A stretch of DNA of 51,686 nt from Clostridia bacterium (GTDB lineage: Bacteria > Bacillota > Clostridia > Oscillospirales > CAG-272), in the NCBI GenBank assembly GCA_017507905.1, contig JAFWAA010000031.1:1-51686 (forward strand), read 5' to 3'. The notes under the pieces were generated by a model. That model saw only the letters and a list, made by a program, of their open reading frames with translations, ran no database searches and was not told the DNA's origin. Position 1 is the stretch's first letter. The number at the start of each line of letters is the position of its first letter. The position numbers were made by a program, and so were the translations under genes. Positions 13,744 to 20,083 of the stretch are shown in pieces.

Positions 13744-14367
13744 ATGTTTTACTATCTCAAGGGTGCCCTCGTGCATCTGGAAAACGGACTTGCCGTTCTG
13801 GACGTTGGCGGTGTTGGCTACAAGCTGACCGTAAGCGGAACCACCTACGACGCCATGCCCCCAAATCGCTCGGTCGCCACCCCTCCCACCGTCTGCCTCT
13901 ATACGCACATGGCCGTCAGAGAGGATGACGTTGAGCTTTTTGGCTTTGCCACGCAGGAGGAGCTGGCCTCCTTCAAACTGCTCATTTCGGTTTCGGGTAT
14001 CGGTCCCAAGGCGGCTATGTCCATTCTCACCCTGCTCTCTCCCAAAAAATTTGCGCTCGCCGTTTGCACCGAGGACAAAAAGACCATCGCCAAGGCCAAC
14101 GGCATCGGCCCAAAGACCGCCGCGCGCGTGATCCTGGAGCTGAAGGACAAGCTGATGAAGGAGACCGATCTCTCCTCTCCCATTTCCGCATCCCCCGCGG
14201 CAAGCGCCACGGGCACCTCGCGCGGAAAGCTTTCCGAGGCAGTGGACGCCCTGGTCGTTCTTGGCTATTCCCGAGCCGAGGCGTCCGGTGTTCTGAAGGA
14301 CCTCGACTCCTCACTTGAGCTGGAGGAGCTGATCCGCGCCGCCCTCAAAAAGCTGATGAAATTCTGA
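13744..14367 (+). CDS. ruvA: Holliday junction DNA-binding protein
   Basis: [46 protein letters not shown]. Confidence 0.97.
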
Positions 14368-14410: not shown

Positions 14411-15490
14411 ATGGATACCAACGATTTCGATTTTGAAAACCGGATCATGACCACAAGCTACACCGCCGAGGATTCGGACGTGGAGACCTCTCTGCGCCCC
14501 AGACACCTTGAGGAGTACGTCGGCCAGGAAAAGGTAAAGGAAAATCTCAAGATCTATATTGAAGCCGCAAAGCAAAGAGGTGAGCCGCTTGACCACGTTC
14601 TGCTTTATGGCCCTCCCGGTCTTGGAAAGACCACGCTCTCCAACATCATCGCCACCGAGATGGGCGTCAATATCCGCATCACCTCCGGCCCTGCCATTGA
14701 AAAGCAAGGCGACCTTGCCGCCATTCTAACCAACCTCAACGAGGGTGACGTGCTTTTCATTGACGAGATCCACCGTCTTTCGCGCTCGGTCGAGGAGATC
14801 CTTTATCCCGCGATGGAGGATTACGCCCTGGACATCATCATCGGCAAGGGCCCGTCCGCCAGAAGCATTCGCATTGATCTTCCCCGCTTTACCCTGATCG
14901 GCGCGACCACGCGCGCGGGACAGATGACCACGCCTCTGCGCGACCGCTTTGGCGTGATCCTCAAGCTTGAGCTTTACACGCCCGAGGAGCTGGCCACCAT
15001 CGTTCGCCGCAACGCAGGGATCCTTGGCATGGAGATCGCGGACGACGGCGCGATTGAGATCGCAAGCCGCTCTCGCGGAACCCCCCGTATTGCCAACCGT
15101 CTGCTCAAGCGCGTGCGCGATTTTGCCCAGATCATGTCCGACGGCGCGATCGACCGAAAGATCGCAAGCTACGCGCTCAACAAGCTGGAGATCGACCACC
15201 TGGGGCTGGACAACGTGGACCGCAGAATGCTCGAGACCATCATCAAGTTCTACGACGGCGGACCCGTTGGTCTTGAAACGCTTGCCGCAACGGTGGGCGA
15301 GGAGGCCGTGACGCTTGAGGATATGTACGAGCCTTATCTGATGCAGATCGGCTTTTTGAGCCGTACGCCGCGAGGCAGATGCGTCACCCGTCTGGCCTGC
15401 GAGCACCTCGGACTTCCCTACCGCGCCCCCCGTGCTGTGGGCGGCGATCAGATCCGCTTCTTTGACGAAGCCGAGGACAAGCACGAATAA
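14411..15490 (+). CDS. ruvB: Holliday junction branch-migration ATPase
   Basis: [40 protein letters not shown]. Confidence 0.98.
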
Positions 15491-15519
15491 CGAGAATACA
15501 AAAAACGGTCTGCCCTGTA

Positions 15520-15723
15520 GGCGTGATACTCTTAGCGGAGTATCACGCCAACTCTATTCGCCTGCGGCGAGTGATATTGCTTCGCAGTGTTATTCGGCTT
15601 ACGCCGAGTGGTATTCGCTTCGCGAGTTTCAGGGCGAATAGAATATCACTGAAGCCGCAAGGCTTCAATATCACGATTGCGATAGCAATCATATCACTCT
15701 TTGCGAGAGCAAAGAATATCACT
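15520..15723. repeat. Inverted array of AATATCAC spacers alternating with variable GN(N)A-loop hairpins (REP/REPIN-like)
   Basis: Four (A)ATATCAC on plus (15642, 15667, 15691, 15715), three GTGNTATT on plus (15571, 15587, 15608), seven short hairpins and a perfect 12-bp hairpin at 15520-15549. Confidence 0.85.
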
Positions 15724-15732
15724 GAAAGCAGA

Positions 15733-15778
15733 AAAAGAGAGAGCAAAGCGGTTTTTCTTTCCGCATTGTTCTCTCTTT
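15733..15778. terminator. Hairpin between convergent ruvB and membrane-protein gene
   Basis: AAAGAGAGAGCAAAGCGG pairs imperfectly with CCGCATTGTTCTCTCTTT. Confidence 0.6.
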
Positions 15779-15902
15779 ATGTTTTTATCGCAAGTTTCGC
15801 ATTTGTTTAACAAATGCATCGGGCTATGCCCATACCCCTATTATAAATTCTCCGATAAGGACATCACCCGTGAGGGCAGACCGTTTTTTCTTGTGCGAGG
15901 GA

Positions 15903-16499
15903 TCAACGCTTGCGGCGCTTATTCTGCAGGCGCTCTCTCTCGGTCTCGTTGACGTAGGAGCTGAAGGCCGAGGTGAATTTGACGTCACGCAATCCGAGAT
16001 TGTAGGTGATCGCCGAAAGAAGCATGGCCGGGATCGGGAGCAGGAAATAGACCCACCAAAAGGAATTGAGCGGCACACCGCCAACGGGAATGGCAAGCAG
16101 TCCCACGAACATTCCCTCCAGAATCGTTGCGGCAAAGGCACCGATCGCACCGAGATGGCTGGTAAAGGGGGTATCCAAAAGCGAGCCGAGCATAATAAAG
16201 ATCGCCAGCAGGAAGTTGACCGCATTGGCGGCCAGCGAGATCCAAAGGCCGGTCAGGGGTGCTCTCGGCTTGCGTCCGGACTCTACCGACACGCGGTCGC
16301 GGTAGCCGATGTCCCAGGTCATCGTGTAGAGCAGGAAGAGATAAAACAGGATCGCTCCAACGCTCGTGACGTTGCGCAGGACGGGGCTTTGGGCGTGTCC
16401 TGCCGCGAGGGCAAGCGAAAAGCCGAAGATCGCCGTTCCAAACTGATTGAGGAACATCTTGAGCATATCGTAGGAATAAGTCTTAAAAAAAGCTTTCAT
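15903..16499 (-). CDS. Hypothetical membrane protein (about 4-5 TM)
   Basis: Host-like codon usage, GGAGG RBS, own promoter, hydrophobic segments. Family not recognised. Confidence 0.8.
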   Translation of the reverse strand: MKAFFKTYSYDMLKMFLNQFGTAIFGFSLALAAGHAQSPVLRNVTSVGAILFYLFLLYTMTWDIGYRDRVSVESGRKPRAPLTGLWISLAANAVNFLLAIFIMLGSLLDTPFTSHLGAIGAFAATILEGMFVGLLAIPVGGVPLNSFWWVYFLLPIPAMLLSAITYNLGLRDVKFTSAFSSYVNETERERLQNKRRKR

Positions 16500-16525
16500 G
16501 GTATACCTCCAAAAGGATTACCTCT

Positions 16526-16554
16526 ATTATACCGAAAACCCATGCCGAAAGCAA
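16526..16554 (-). promoter_or_regulatory. sigma-A promoter of membrane-protein gene
   Basis: TTGCTT-17bp-TATAAT. Confidence 0.7.
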
Positions 16555-16603
16555 CCGAAGCGCACAAAAATTTACAATTTATCAACTAAAATATCACGAT
16601 GTG

Positions 16604-16612
16604 TGCTATAAT
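16604..16612 (+). promoter_or_regulatory. Extended -10 promoter of recombinase gene
   Basis: TGCTATAAT, no good -35. Confidence 0.55.
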
Positions 16613-16684
16613 AAAAGGAGGAAAGGCGCAAAACGAGCCGTTTTTTTGCCGCACCGCATCTTTTTTCGGAAAGGAGGAATACGC

Positions 16685-17692
16685 ATGGGAAAGCTGATCT
16701 CGATTCGGGAGTTCTCTCCCCTCATTCAGGAATTCGCCGCCTATAAATCCTCCATTCAGGGCTGCTCGCAAAAAACGGTGGAGGAATATCTGCTCGATCT
16801 GCGCACCTTCTTCCGCTATCTCGTGGCGCGGGAAAAGGATATCGATCCGCACTCCGCGGAGTTTTCTACCCTTGATATCAGCTCTATCGGTCTGCGCGAG
16901 CTGGAAAAGATCCACGCCGAGGATCTCTACGATTTTCTGCTTTACGTCAATCACACGCGCGAAAACCAATGGGCGGCGCGCTCGCGCAAGCTCTCGGCCA
17001 TTCGTTCGCTTTACAAATACCTGGTCAACAAAAAGCACTATCTGGAGTACAACCCCACCACCGACATTGATTCCCCCAAGCCCGCAAAGGCTCTGCCCAA
17101 GGTGCTGACGCTGGACGAGGCCGAGCGCCTGCTGGACGCCGTGGACAAGGATCGCAATTCCCCCACGCGCGTTCGCGATTACGCGATCCTCACGCTCTTT
17201 CTCAACTGCGGAATGCGTGTTTCCGAGCTTGTTGGCATTGATCTGCGCGATCTTGATTCGGATTTTCAGTCGGTGCGCGTTACGGGAAAAGGAAACAAGG
17301 AGCGCATCATCTATCTTAACCAGGCCTGCCAGACCGCGCTTTGCGATTACGCGATCCAGAGGCTGAGCCAGAAATACGCCAAAGTGCATGACCCTGCCCT
17401 CTTTTTAAGCCGCCTGGAAAAGCGCATCAGCGTCAAGACCGTGCAAGCCATGGTCTACAAGTATCTGCGCGCCGCGGGACTCGGCTCCAAGGGATACTCG
17501 GTACATAAGCTCCGCCACACCGCCGCCACGCTGATGTATCAATCCGGGCAGGTGGACGTGCGCGTGCTGAAGGAGATCCTGGGCCACGAGCAGCTCAACA
17601 CCACGCAGATCTATACGCACGTCAGCAACACGGACATCGAACGCGCTATGCAAAAGAATCCCCTCGCAACAAAGAGGAGATCGAAGAAATAA
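16685..17692 (+). CDS. Tyrosine recombinase, XerC/XerD family
   Basis: Complete R-K-H-R-H-Y set (GMRVSEL, GKGNKER, HKLRH, LGHEQL, TTQIY) and an N-terminal SAM-like domain. Start MGKLIS after AAAGGAGG. Confidence 0.92.
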   Translation: MGKLISIREFSPLIQEFAAYKSSIQGCSQKTVEEYLLDLRTFFRYLVAREKDIDPHSAEFSTLDISSIGLRELEKIHAEDLYDFLLYVNHTRENQWAARSRKLSAIRSLYKYLVNKKHYLEYNPTTDIDSPKPAKALPKVLTLDEAERLLDAVDKDRNSPTRVRDYAILTLFLNCGMRVSELVGIDLRDLDSDFQSVRVTGKGNKERIIYLNQACQTALCDYAIQRLSQKYAKVHDPALFLSRLEKRISVKTVQAMVYKYLRAAGLGSKGYSVHKLRHTAATLMYQSGQVDVRVLKEILGHEQLNTTQIYTHVSNTDIERAMQKNPLATKRRSKK

Positions 17693-17729
17693 AGAACGCA
17701 CCCCCGATCGCCAAGGGCGAATTTCACTG

Positions 17730-17763
17730 AAAAAAGCACGTCTGCATCGCAGACGTGCTTTTT
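17730..17763. terminator. Bidirectional terminator after recombinase
   Basis: A6-GCACGTCTGC-ATC-GCAGACGTGC-T5. Confidence 0.9.
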
Positions 17764-17802
17764 GTTGGCCGCGCAGATCTTAAAGTCAAACACCGCCATC
17801 GT

Positions 17803-17881
17803 GGATACAAGGGCGGCCCGTCGCCCTTGATGATATACGCCTCGCTTCGCGCGGCGATGATATGCCAAGCCTGCGGCTTGG
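17803..17881. repeat. Second spacer/hairpin array (ATGATAT spacers, three hairpins)
   Basis: CAAGGGCG/CGCCCTTG; GATGATATAC; CGC-TTC-GCG hairpin; GATGATATG; CCAAGCC-TGC-GGCTTGG. Confidence 0.75.
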
Positions 17882-17931
17882 ATAAAAAAAACGCTGCAGA
17901 AAAGTACCCTTTTCTGCAGCGTTTTTTTTAT
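17882..17931. terminator. Perfect 23-bp inverted repeat terminator (probable original ssrA terminator)
   Basis: ATAAAAAAAACGCTGCAGAAAAG-TACC-CTTTTCTGCAGCGTTTTTTTTAT. Confidence 0.88.
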
Positions 17932-17961
17932 GAGTAATTGGTGAATAGGATACAAAATCCT

Positions 17962-18035
17962 AATGGGTTCATTTTGCAAAATGGGTTCACTTTTTGTAGA
18001 AAATGGGTTCACTTTTTTTGCAAAAAATGGGTTCA
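17962..18035 (+). repeat. Four direct repeats AATGGGTTCA
   Basis: Exact 10-mers at 17962, 17980, 18002 and 18026. Confidence 0.9.
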
Positions 18036-18055
18036 AATTTAACGATTGCCAAGCA

Positions 18056-18796
18056 TTAGTCTTCGTTGTTTTTTGTTATCATTTTCCAAGTCAAAGAACG
18101 TGCGCGGAAATATATATATTCCTCCGTTAATTCTTCTACACTCTCTATGCAGTCGTCAACCCAATAAACAAATCCATCGTGGAACAAAATGTTCGAATCC
18201 ATAATATCGGGCATAGTGTTGTCGTCATAATTGAAGTGTATTAAAACATCCTTTTTAAATTCTAATATAATATCGCATTCCCAACATCCAGTAAATAATA
18301 CACGAACGCAGCTTGAATCATTATAGTTTTCTTTTAATTCATAACTAATGTTTTTTATTCTAGCATCATGAAATCCCCAAGCGGCACTCAATAAATTATC
18401 TGCATCTTTGAGGTTTTTAACTCGTTTCCATTCGCCTGTATCAATGTTTTTGTTTTGCTCTTCTGCAATTTTGATGTATTTTTCATCAACAGGTTTCCCG
18501 TCTTTGATTTGCTTTATTAAGTCACAATTATCCAAAAGCCAAGAATATCCGAAGCAGTCTTTATAAGTTGTTACCATAGATAGTTTAATTTCTTTCTTTT
18601 CGACCATATCTGCAATATCAGTATCTATTATAAAGACCTTTCTTTTAAGAGAAGGCTTCGTATTATATACATTCAGTAATTCAAATTGTTTATTTTCAGT
18701 ATCAAAAACGATTACACACTCATACCATCCGGGATTAAATTTTGCAAATATATGTGAATAGTATTCTCTATTATCAGATACAATTTTTGCAAGCAT
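18056..18796 (-). CDS. AT-rich hypothetical protein (horizontally acquired)
   Basis: 246-aa ORF with AGGAGGTG RBS and its own promoter. Codon usage differs from the host. Contains an FHDA motif. Confidence 0.85.
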   Translation of the reverse strand: MLAKIVSDNREYYSHIFAKFNPGWYECVIVFDTENKQFELLNVYNTKPSLKRKVFIIDTDIADMVEKKEIKLSMVTTYKDCFGYSWLLDNCDLIKQIKDGKPVDEKYIKIAEEQNKNIDTGEWKRVKNLKDADNLLSAAWGFHDARIKNISYELKENYNDSSCVRVLFTGCWECDIILEFKKDVLIHFNYDDNTMPDIMDSNILFHDGFVYWVDDCIESVEELTEEYIYFRARSLTWKMITKNNED

Positions 18797-18824
18797 AAGG
18801 CACCTCCTATAATAAGTTGGTTAT

Positions 18825-18853
18825 AGTATATCATAAAATCATCAATTATGCAA
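18825..18853 (-). promoter_or_regulatory. sigma-A promoter of islet gene
   Basis: TTGCAT-17bp-TATACT with extended TG. Confidence 0.75.
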
Positions 18854-18902
18854 TGACTATTGCAGGTGTATTTTTTTGAATCGCAGTTTTAATTAAGGAT
18901 CT

Positions 18903-18996
18903 ATTTTAACGATTACTCCCACAAATTTAACGAATACACACAATTTTAACGAAACACCATAAAATTAACGAATACCTACAATTTTAACGCAAGCAA
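18903..18996 (+). repeat. Five direct repeats with TTAACG core, period 21/19/19/19 bp
   Basis: Units such as ACAAATTTAACGAATACAC, ACAATTTTAACGAAACACC, ATAAAATTAACGAATACCT, ACAATTTTAACGCAAGCAA. Confidence 0.88.
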
Positions 18997-19154
18997 AAGG
19001 AGACCATCGACCGAAGGAGCAAATAATCTCGGAAGATAGGCTTTCTTTATCGAAAACTGTGATTTTTATGCGTCAAAAGGGCAAAAATACCCCTAAAAAG
19101 CAATAAAAACGCAGATTAGGCACAAATAATTGTATCCTATTCTGCGTTCTTATT

Positions 19155-19547
19155 TGGTGGAGATGAGGAGAATCGAACTCCTGTCCGAAAACCCCTTGAT
19201 AAAACTTTCTTCGTGGGCAGTCTGTTGTTTAGAATTCCCTCGCGAGGACGCGAACAGACACGCTTCCTCTTGCGGTAGCCCTTTTTTGCTTGATCGGTTC
19301 AAGAGCGAACGGCCGATGCAAGTTCACCGCTCAAATGACGCTCAGTCCAAGGCCGCGGTACTCCTTGGAGGAACGGGTGACCCGCAGGTCACGGCACTGC
19401 CGGTTTTACGTCAAACGACGTAAAACTTAGGCAGCCATAGCAACAGTATTGTTGTCGTTTATTGTTTAATGTTAGGCCTTTATCGAGATTGCCCGGCTCG
19501 CCACGCTTATCTTATCGCAGAATCCCCGTCGAAACCATTGCACCCCC
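19155..19547 (-). ncRNA. ssrA: tmRNA
   Basis: 5' GGGGGUGCAAUGGUUUCGAC; 3' GGAGUUCGAUUCUCCUCAUCUCCACCA; G3-U70 wobble; tag ORF (A)DNNTVAMAA-stop at 19456-19427. Directly downstream of smpB. Confidence 0.97.
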
Positions 19548-19606: not shown

Positions 19607-20083
19607 TCAGCTCTCGTAGGAGCGATCCTTCATGTGTCGGTCAATATCGCGGTTTGCCTGCCGTTCGGCATCGGCATCGCGCTTATCGTAGAGCTTCTTG
19701 CCTCGGCAAAGCCCAAGCTCGACCTTGACGTAGCCCGAAAAATACATGGAGAGCGGAACGAGCGTATACCCCTTCTGCTGGACCAGGCCCTGCAGACGCA
19801 TGATCTCGCGCTTGTGCATGAGCAGCTTTTTATCGCGCATGGGATCGCGGTTGAAGATGTTGCCGTGATCGTAAGGGCTGATGTGCAGTCCTACCGCAAA
19901 AAGCTCGCCCTTCTCAAAGGAGCAGTAGGAATCCTTGAGGTTTGCCCCTCCCTGCCGCAGGCTCTTGACCTCCGTGCCGTGCAGGGCGATGCCTGCCTCG
20001 TATTTTTCTTCTACGAAATAGTCGTGCCACGCCTTTCGGTTTTGCACGATGCTTCTTGTTTTTTCCTGTTTTTTCTCTGCCAT
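19607..20083 (-). CDS. smpB: SsrA-binding protein
   Basis: NRKAWHDY, EAGIALHGTEVKSLR, RDKKLLMHKREI, GKKLYDKR. Confidence 0.98.
   Translation of the reverse strand: MAEKKQEKTRSIVQNRKAWHDYFVEEKYEAGIALHGTEVKSLRQGGANLKDSYCSFEKGELFAVGLHISPYDHGNIFNRDPMRDKKLLMHKREIMRLQGLVQQKGYTLVPLSMYFSGYVKVELGLCRGKKLYDKRDADAERQANRDIDRHMKDRSYES

Follow-up and report, generated by a model that had tools for sequence, protein, structure and literature searches.

A low-GC gene cassette between an Xer-type recombinase and ssrA in a Clostridia bacterium belongs to a widespread, apparently undescribed family

The contig analysed here (51,686 nucleotides from a Clostridia bacterium, JAFWAA010000031.1 of assembly GCA_017507905.1; hereafter the window) carries a tyrosine recombinase gene that points toward the transfer-messenger RNA (tmRNA) gene ssrA, and between the two lie a pair of terminators, an array of small hairpins and a low-GC islet with a single gene. 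A first-pass annotation had suggested that the recombinase and the hairpins might be an integron-like machine that captures genes at this place. We conclude instead that the locus is very probably a chance juxtaposition of an Xer-type recombinase, a truncated array and a non-autonomous cassette, and not one system. We show that the islet is inserted precisely with respect to an empty site, that its ends are conserved around variable cargo, that units of this kind have many tRNA targets and can stack, and that no recombinase lies near them. The islet would thus be a non-autonomous, promoter-carrying single-gene cassette that entered by site-specific recombination in the A-run behind ssrA, and the enzyme that mobilises such cassettes presumably acts in trans. 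The genome (G000) is a 1.6-Mb metagenome assembly of 63 contigs, 92% complete; G017 is a sister genome of the same genus, with a recombinase 98% identical to that of G000, and further relatives are G011, G014 and G015. Individual loci bear numbers (L002, L059, L124 and others). All parts that the annotation had named (intact recombinase facing ssrA, two terminators, hairpin array, low-GC single-gene islet, repeat-rich ends) were found at or near the positions it gave.

The islet occupies 17932-19154 (minus strand) and is bounded by ssrA itself (19155-19547, minus strand; identified by ARAGORN with the tag peptide DNNTVAMAA, and by Rfam model RF00023 at 153.7 bits) and by the original ssrA terminator (terminator 2, 17882-17931, minus strand, with 23-nt arms that are 100% complementary). 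From about 17.9 to 19.15 kb the G+C content is 29-37%, against some 56% in the flanks. In G017 the terminator abuts the CCA end of ssrA, making contact as ..CTCCACCAAAAAAACGCTGCAG.., and the empty site reads ..CATCTCCACC-AAAAAAA-CGCTGCAG.., that is, CACC-A7-CGCTGCAG. In G000 the CCA end and its original terminator stand apart by the 1223 bp that are absent from the G017 site: the ssrA-side junction reads CACC-AAA-TAAGAACGCAG (also written CACC-A3-TAAGAACG), and the far junction ..ATTACTCAT-AAAAAAAA-CGCTGCAG (also written CTCAT-A8-CGCTGCAG). No duplicated fragment of ssrA was found at the far end of the islet, where the sequence (..CACCAATTACTCAT|AAAAAAAACGC) is identical with the target in the A-run only. 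Nothing of ssrA is duplicated, and the exchange must have taken place within three or four A residues. The islet has been inserted precisely, into the A-run that separates the CCA end from the terminator.

The slot behind ssrA is variable, as the annotation had supposed. The 3' flank of ssrA differs in every member of the genus; G017 has no islet there and carries a different gene, of 108 aa; and islets comparable to that of G000 stand at the ssrA of G015, G014 and L097 with no Xer gene beside them. The G015 islet (L059, contig C18, about 15730-17510) is a low-GC insertion of its own, 1.8 kb long, at the 3' end of ssrA and 51 kb from Xer; judging from its sequence, it holds an XRE-type regulator, two small SHOCT-tailed membrane proteins and tRNA-like fragments. 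As a separate observation, tRNA genes on G000 contigs C27 (tRNA-His, tRNA-Leu), C39 (tRNA-Arg), C56 (tRNA-Leu) and C29 (tRNA-Gly) are followed by units of 150-250 bp, each of which ends in a copy of the tRNA 3' end and a terminator of its own; at some of these loci the unit is present more than once. These units look like serial miniature target-duplicating insertions, distinct from the cassettes described here.

Within the islet, a left end (LE, 18797-19154), a cargo gene of 246 aa (18056-18796), which is its sole open reading frame (ORF), and a right end (RE, 17932-18055) follow each other on the minus strand. The LE begins directly after the CCA end with a 19-bp hairpin, T1 (19102-19154), and continues with a second hairpin, five TCGTTAAA iterons (18905-18990; the repeat scan counted 5-6 copies of TTTAACGA), a promoter and a ribosome-binding site. 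T1, the first hairpin of the cassette, would now terminate ssrA. The promoter that the annotation had assigned to the cassette is indeed present: it is of the extended -10 type, with the -35 element at 18848-18853 and the -10 element at 18825-18833 (TTGCAT-17-TGATATACT), and precedes an AGGAGG ribosome-binding site at 18804-18809. The RE comprises one TCGTTAAA, four copies of GAACCCATT (four of AATGGGTTCA in the repeat scan), the hairpin AGGATTTTGTATCCT at 17947-17961 and the tail ..CACCAATTACTCAT.

Both ends recur around other genes. The LE can be aligned over 250-330 nt behind T1 across about 30 species with different cargo, and its conserved contents are the second hairpin, two to five TCGTTAAA(A/T)TTATGG iterons and a promoter of the form TTGAAA-17-TGATATAAT, also given as TTGAAA-17-TGnTATAAT. 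The RE measures about 110 nt across the family. It is built from TCGTTAAA, two to four copies of GAACCCATTTT and the hairpin GGATTTTGTATCCT, and ends in a short tail, after which the local terminator follows; at more than 15 loci such an RE closes a cassette whose cargo is another, and that of the window matches those of L074, L076, L089, L095, L100 and others. In G000 itself a second RE copy, with GAACCCATTTT repeats and the GGATTTTGTATCCT hairpin, lies at C37:33256-33330 after an ORF of more than 882 aa with 44-48% G+C. We found no T1 left end within 3 kb of this copy, and RE modules therefore also close much larger cargo.

An exact copy of the T1 20-mer, GAACGCAGAATAGGATACAA, is present in 44 species-representative genomes of uncultured gut Clostridia, which bear the labels Eubacteriales, Christensenellaceae, Candidatus Scatosoma or Oscillospiraceae, and in 6 metagenome contigs; viral contigs gave no match to it, and plasmid and phage collections none to the islet. 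In 27 loci T1 stands 4-6 nt after the CCA end of a tRNA gene (Ser, Arg, Glu, Leu, Gln, Pro or Ala) or of the tmRNA gene, and in other loci it follows a displaced tRNA gene (tDNA) end or the tail of a previous cassette, as in the tandem stacks of L123 (..TTTACTC|AAATAAGAACGCAG) and L124. In the window, 5 nt separate the ssrA CCA end from an exact copy of the 20-mer, and the LE can be aligned with about 30 loci over a length of more than 300 nt. The same cassette, with 90% protein identity, both ends and an identical RE end, is found behind tRNA-Ala on an independent contig (L074). An element specific for the end CTCCACCA that tRNA-Ala and tmRNA have in common, to which L074 had pointed, was ruled out by the presence of T1 after seven tRNA types. 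CACCAA was likewise rejected as a tDNA-derived att repeat: the tail belongs to the cassette, occurs in variants and is also found at other tRNA genes. A transposon with terminal inverted repeats and target duplication was excluded too, there being no duplication and the inverted repeats being subterminal. The orthologous-interval comparison suggested with the annotation thus gave a split result: the variable cargo and conserved ends are there, and the interval between recombinase and ssrA is absent in most relatives.

The cargo is unrelated between loci and includes an Mrr nuclease, C5 methylases with an XRE regulator, an RNase T-like exonuclease with a BRCT domain, a SAP-domain protein, PadR with DUF2812, lipoproteins of 304 aa, a zinc-ribbon protein of 124 aa and many orphans. 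For the 246-aa protein of the window we found 64 homologue clusters at 29-98% identity in varied contexts, distant copies of the gene lying next to tRNA-Ser (L068) or in defence-type neighbourhoods; the protein had no match in Pfam, NCBIfam or PADLOC. Its AlphaFold model (pLDDT 91.7) consists of two beta-rich domains joined by helices, and matched no fold in the PDB at E < 0.001. The 473-aa cargo protein of L100 starts MLAKILSNGSVYHSPVFAV, much like that of the window (MLAKIVSDNREYYSHIFAKF); the two may share an N-terminal domain, the longer C-terminal part of the L100 protein containing membrane segments. Altogether these loci make up a widespread cassette family of gut Clostridia with conserved ends, variable cargo and no recombinase of its own, which is apparently undescribed.

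The recombinase next to the islet (16685-17692, plus strand, 335 aa) is the core Xer-type enzyme of the chromosome, and to call it an island integrase is wrong. It contains the Pfam domains PF00589 (6e-39) and, at the N-terminus, the SAM-like PF02899 (5e-10), the N-terminal domain carrying an insert of about 35 aa. XerC (228 bits) and XerD (215 bits) are its top NCBIfam matches, below their equivalog cut-offs of 335 and 330, and the best hit in the PDB is E. coli XerD (1a0p, 8e-33), with IntI4 only in 7th place (2.5e-15). The integron integrase models scored far below their thresholds (TIGR02249, 94.9 bits against a cut-off of 265; PRK15417, 64 against 435). An orthologue is present in 41/41 relatives, with 67-76% identity within the genus and 42-52% within the order, and by tblastn the gene stands head-to-head with a divergent gene for a 198-aa membrane protein (15903-16499, minus strand, in the window) in 21 of the 22 genus genomes; this protein matched no family in Pfam or NCBIfam. 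The caveat attached to the annotation, that the enzyme could simply be the housekeeping Xer, agrees with these top matches, with the presence of the gene in all relatives and with its conserved partner. From this conservation, resolution of chromosome dimers is most likely its role.

A search for another xerC and for a dif site, also proposed at the outset, was answered in part. The gene is the only complete PF00589 gene in the assembly. As to dif, the 92%-complete assembly contained no match within 7 mismatches to the B. subtilis or E. coli site and no convincing 11-6-11 site. The other PF00589 match in G000 is a C-terminal fragment at C6:4-201, which is convergent with tRNA-Ser (C6:454-542) at the edge of the contig; it resembles a classical integrase-bearing island cut by assembly, and its integrase is a possible trans-acting enzyme.

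The neighbourhood of recombinase and ssrA is itself young. Of the 22 genus genomes, G000 and G017 alone have a tmRNA gene within 1.5 kb of the recombinase; the distance is 51 kb in G015 and 31 kb in G011, and the genes downstream of the recombinase are ordinary ones that vary among the genus genomes. The G015 interval holds core genes, including truB and trmB, whose G000 homologues are on another contig. As the linkage is not conserved in the genus, the adjacency is a recent lineage-specific rearrangement common to G000 and G017 only. Elsewhere in the window, ruvA (13744-14367) and ruvB (14411-15490), both on the plus strand, precede the membrane-protein gene, and on the far side of ssrA lie smpB (19607-20083, minus strand) and, judged from their translations, sporulation and division genes (divIC, yabQ, yabP and others).

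The stretch between the recombinase and the islet is made of terminators and hairpins, and when 17725-17935 was folded as single-stranded DNA it gave z = -11.7, with 0/200 shuffles reaching an equally good fold. These structures rest on inverted-repeat and fold analysis, since the loop and stem rules of the promoter and terminator scanner made it miss the main hairpins. Terminator 1 (17731-17763, identical in G017) has 15-nt arms of 100% complementarity, with an A-run on one side and a T-run on the other, and is a bidirectional intrinsic terminator that closes the recombinase gene. The array that the annotation had described does contain three perfect small hairpins (17808-17881, minus strand; hairpins at 17808-17829, 17838-17856 and 17865-17881, with linkers ATGATATA and ATGATATG), and is incomplete: these hairpins and linkers are the first arm only of a two-armed element. 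G017 has the full two-armed array after the ssrA terminator, followed by a promoter and the 108-aa gene. The array of the window is a remnant of an older array-type module behind ssrA, of the TATATCAT type. As a side observation, its two variable hairpins (17808-17856) are closer to the tRNA-Val and tRNA-Arg arrays of G000 (L002, 3170-3245) than to the ssrA array of G017, which suggests exchange or conversion between array copies within one genome.

Arrays of this kind are spread over the genome. A scan of the whole G000 assembly found at least 15 clusters of three or more perfect hairpins with constant linkers, six of them directly behind tRNA or tmRNA genes, and a common layout emerged when the 400 nt behind every tRNA gene were read. 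Full arrays directly follow the terminators of tRNA-Ser, Val, Arg, Glu, Tyr, Gln, Pro and a second Val, and likewise displaced tRNA 3' ends; those behind tRNA-Ser, tRNA-Val and tRNA-Arg include full two-armed copies of the TATATCAT type. The plan of this type runs from the terminator through TATCCAAGCCGCAGGCTTGG and three units of hairpin plus (C/T)ATATCAT to the centre, and from there through three units of ATGATATA plus hairpin to a promoter and a gene. Other arrays use the linkers CATCAT/ATGATG, TATGGAATC/GATTCCAT, GTGAAAT/ATTTCAC or ATATCAC/GTGATAT, and in all types the two arms have linkers that are reverse complements of each other. RNAalifold on seven aligned full copies paired the linkers arm to arm, with compensatory changes in 21/55 pairs. 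The two-armed element sits behind the terminator of a tRNA-type gene and ahead of the next promoter, and in a single-stranded form its linkers would pair arm to arm while the small hairpins protruded as side branches.

Some of these arrays match Gut-1 (RF01706), an orphan motif whose function is not known and which has been found only in human gut metagenomes (PMC2864571). The Gut-1 model gave 69.6 bits on a G000 copy behind tRNA-Val (contig C36) and 64.7 and 58.1 bits on metagenome contig L076; a second array in the window, at 15549-15724, reached 48.1 and 43.9 bits, against a gathering threshold of 50. In the Rfam search the array at 17808-17881 had no Gut-1 match, and full TATATCAT arrays remained at 25 bits or less. 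The hairpin array is a dispersed Gut-1-like repeat, and not an att array specific to this locus. The second array in the window is of the two-armed ATATCAC type and belongs to a 360-bp element (15514-15873) that lies inside the loop of a terminator, which is bidirectional and common to ruvB and the membrane-protein gene. G017 keeps this terminator intact (aaaaaaacggcctgccc-atca-cgggcagaccgtttttt), and the array element has therefore been mobile recently and targets the loop of a terminator hairpin. We also observed that many contigs of G000 (C6, C8, C10, C16, C19, C29, C36 and C56) begin or break off with a tRNA gene 50-450 bp away; the repeated modules of terminator and array behind such genes probably interrupt the assembly and hide accessory DNA of the metagenome-assembled genome (MAG).

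How the cassettes move was approached through their ends and through searches for a recombinase. Neither tblastn with Xer on about 60 cassette loci (2-12 kb) nor a hidden Markov model of 24 Xer orthologues together with a serine-recombinase motif, run on 1029 cassette-locus ORFs, found a recombinase gene; a regular-expression scan of the genome for serine-recombinase and IS200-type Y1 motifs, a weak test, returned spurious frames only. As no recombinase is carried by the cassettes, the enzyme acts in trans or is gone. The inverted-repeat analysis identified 13-bp inverted arms, TTGTATCCTATTC and GAATAGGATACAA. In a circular form of the cassette the joined ends would make a site of about 51 bp, with these 13-bp inverted arms around a spacer of about 25 nt and the crossover in the middle of the spacer, and a recombinase encoded elsewhere, or since lost, would act on it. 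An attP of some 50 bp that is symmetric and crosses over at a central dinucleotide is a trait of large serine recombinases, and the joined-end site resembles it in size and symmetry. From this geometry a large serine recombinase would be the best-fitting mobiliser, a suggestion that we hold tentatively and at somewhat less than an even chance. Another route of movement is possible but doubtful, a tyrosine integrase with the end iterons for its arm sites a little more doubtful still, and the neighbouring Xer a most improbable candidate. An integrative mobile element exploiting Xer (IMEX) at dif was also considered and rejected: the site used here is the junction of the ssrA CCA end and the terminator, and its 13-bp arms are separated by a gap of about 25 nt.

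Several points weigh against a chance assemblage with a cassette served in trans. The housekeeping role of Xer is deduced from conservation, the dif search having found no site. No autonomous relative with LE, RE and a recombinase turned up in the 44 genome loci, the 6 metagenome loci, viral contigs, plasmids or phages. At 92% completeness and in 63 contigs, the assembly could be missing a second recombinase, and the integrase fragment at C6:4-201 does exist. Finally, the iterons at both ends would suit the arm sites of a tyrosine integrase, which weakens the preference for a serine recombinase.

These points have to be set beside the alternatives. That of the annotation, a resident integron-like platform on which cassettes are inserted at ssrA and excised again by the neighbouring recombinase, with the hairpins acting as single-stranded att sites, we regard as very unlikely. 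It can call on a recombinase that is intact, faces ssrA and is the sole complete tyrosine recombinase of the assembly, on cargo between recombinase and ssrA that differs between G000 and G017, and on family cassettes that stack in tandem as integron cassettes do. However, the adjacency exists in only 2/22 genus genomes, in 44 species cassettes of the same family are found at seven tRNA types and have no recombinase within about 4 kb, the array is a dispersed repeat with no ORFs between its units, and neither dif (11-6-11) nor attC resembles the junction site, in which 25 nt separate the 13-bp arms. An integron proper was ruled out by the score of the integron-integrase model (95 bits against a cut-off of 265), by the lack of attC sites, by the cassettes' own promoters and by the unconserved linkage. 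The annotation had itself named findings that would speak against a gene-capture locus, and what we found is largely of that kind: the recombinase is the sole complete Xer-type enzyme, and islets occur at ssrA and tRNA genes without it.

It is also unlikely, if less so than a platform of that kind, that the islet is the stump of a prophage or of a tRNA/tmRNA island that has lost its integrase and decayed, its repeats being former arm-type sites. Such a stump would be at home here, tmRNA and tRNA genes being standard targets of tyrosine-integrase islands (PMC4383910) and cis-mobilizable elements (CIMEs) without an integrase being known (PMC5704250). The iterons at both ends, the partial copies of the ssrA 3' end behind ssrA in other genus members, which are classical island scars, and the integrase fragment that adjoins tRNA-Ser on contig C6 fit it as well. 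Yet the islet has no displaced ssrA fragment, its crossover lies in an A-run of 3-4 nt outside the gene, and one end module is found at seven tRNA types and the tmRNA gene, which a single tDNA-specific integrase would not achieve; the ends, moreover, are conserved in many species as complete units around unrelated single genes, which speaks for an intact design and not random decay. Least probable of all is an artefact of the MAG assembly, in which the adjacency or the islet would have arisen by joining through repeated hairpin or terminator sequence. Contigs do break beside many tRNA genes where repeats lie, and the array is a multi-copy repeat, but the separately listed G017 shows the same order of recombinase, junction, array and ssrA with a unique junction, 42-70% of the sampled words of the stretch were present in 20 public gut or faecal runs, and the same cassette with both ends lies on the independent contigs L074 and L071.

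Starting from the preferred reading, that of a non-autonomous cassette beside an unconnected Xer gene, a bolder one can be built, and we put it forward as a possibility that we would not at present bet on: the units bounded by T1 and RE would be a new gene-cassette system that recognises a structural A-run target, accepts any tRNA-type gene, stacks in tandem and depends on an enzyme elsewhere. Docking would take place in an A-run that is preceded by the CCA end or by a previous cassette's tail and followed by the hairpin of an intrinsic terminator, and Gut-1-like arrays would be a second type of front module of the same system. In its boldest form, which taken alone is very improbable, the servicing enzyme would be the only Xer-type recombinase of the host.

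Genes for tRNA and tmRNA are the classic landing sites of mobile DNA, and an integrase is normally restricted to a single target gene. The cassette family uses one pair of ends at seven tRNA types and the tmRNA gene, and does so in 44 or more species of uncultured Clostridia from gut and rumen. If a distinct docking mechanism lies behind this, some of the gene turnover among strains of gut Firmicutes would be accounted for, given a cargo that includes restriction nucleases, methylases and many orphan genes, and the orphan Gut-1 motif would gain a genomic context. A compact insertion module that is equipped with a promoter and targets terminators could also be put to use as a tool. In annotation, Xer and not island integrase is the name to give to the recombinase beside ssrA.

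Compared with known systems, the recombinase resembles XerC/XerD, XerS, XerH and XerA in architecture, best matches and core conservation, and possibly works as a single recombinase as XerS, XerH and XerA do; it differs from XerC/XerD in falling below their equivalog cut-offs and in its N-terminal insert of about 35 aa. The arrays follow the same hairpin-linker grammar as Gut-1 (RF01706; Weinberg et al. 2010, PMC2864571), and some G000 copies exceed its threshold. However, the Rfam model covers one arm only, the elements described here are two-armed and tied to terminators, and the linker of the ssrA array (TATATCAT/ATGATATA) is different. Repetitive extragenic palindromes and bacterial interspersed mosaic elements (REP/BIME) are likewise dispersed extragenic palindromes that cluster near terminators between genes and break assemblies, whereas here the stems vary by unit, the linker of 7-9 nt is constant and the arms are mirror images; a genome motif search, which is a weak test, detected no signature of the REP-associated tyrosine transposase (RAYT) type.

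The cassettes share with tDNA islands and CIMEs (PMC4383910, PMC5704250) the insertion of low-GC foreign DNA at the 3' end of a tRNA-type gene, for which they supply the following sequence, as well as tandem stacking and, in non-autonomous forms, the need for an enzyme in trans. Those islands have an integrase and a duplicated target fragment, whereas the cassette has neither and crosses over in the A-run after the CCA end; the cassettes also differ as tiny single-gene units with a promoter module of 250-330 nt that are found at seven tRNA types and the tmRNA gene. With integron cassettes they have in common that they are small, mostly single-gene units with structured, conserved ends and unrelated cargo, which can be arranged in tandem at one site. 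Integrons, however, work with IntI, attC and one attI, and here no IntI-type enzyme adjoins the array and the ends are not attC. Integron cassettes are mostly promoterless and are read from the promoter of the platform, whereas the cassettes between T1 and RE bring their own promoter and terminator and have many tRNA-type docks.

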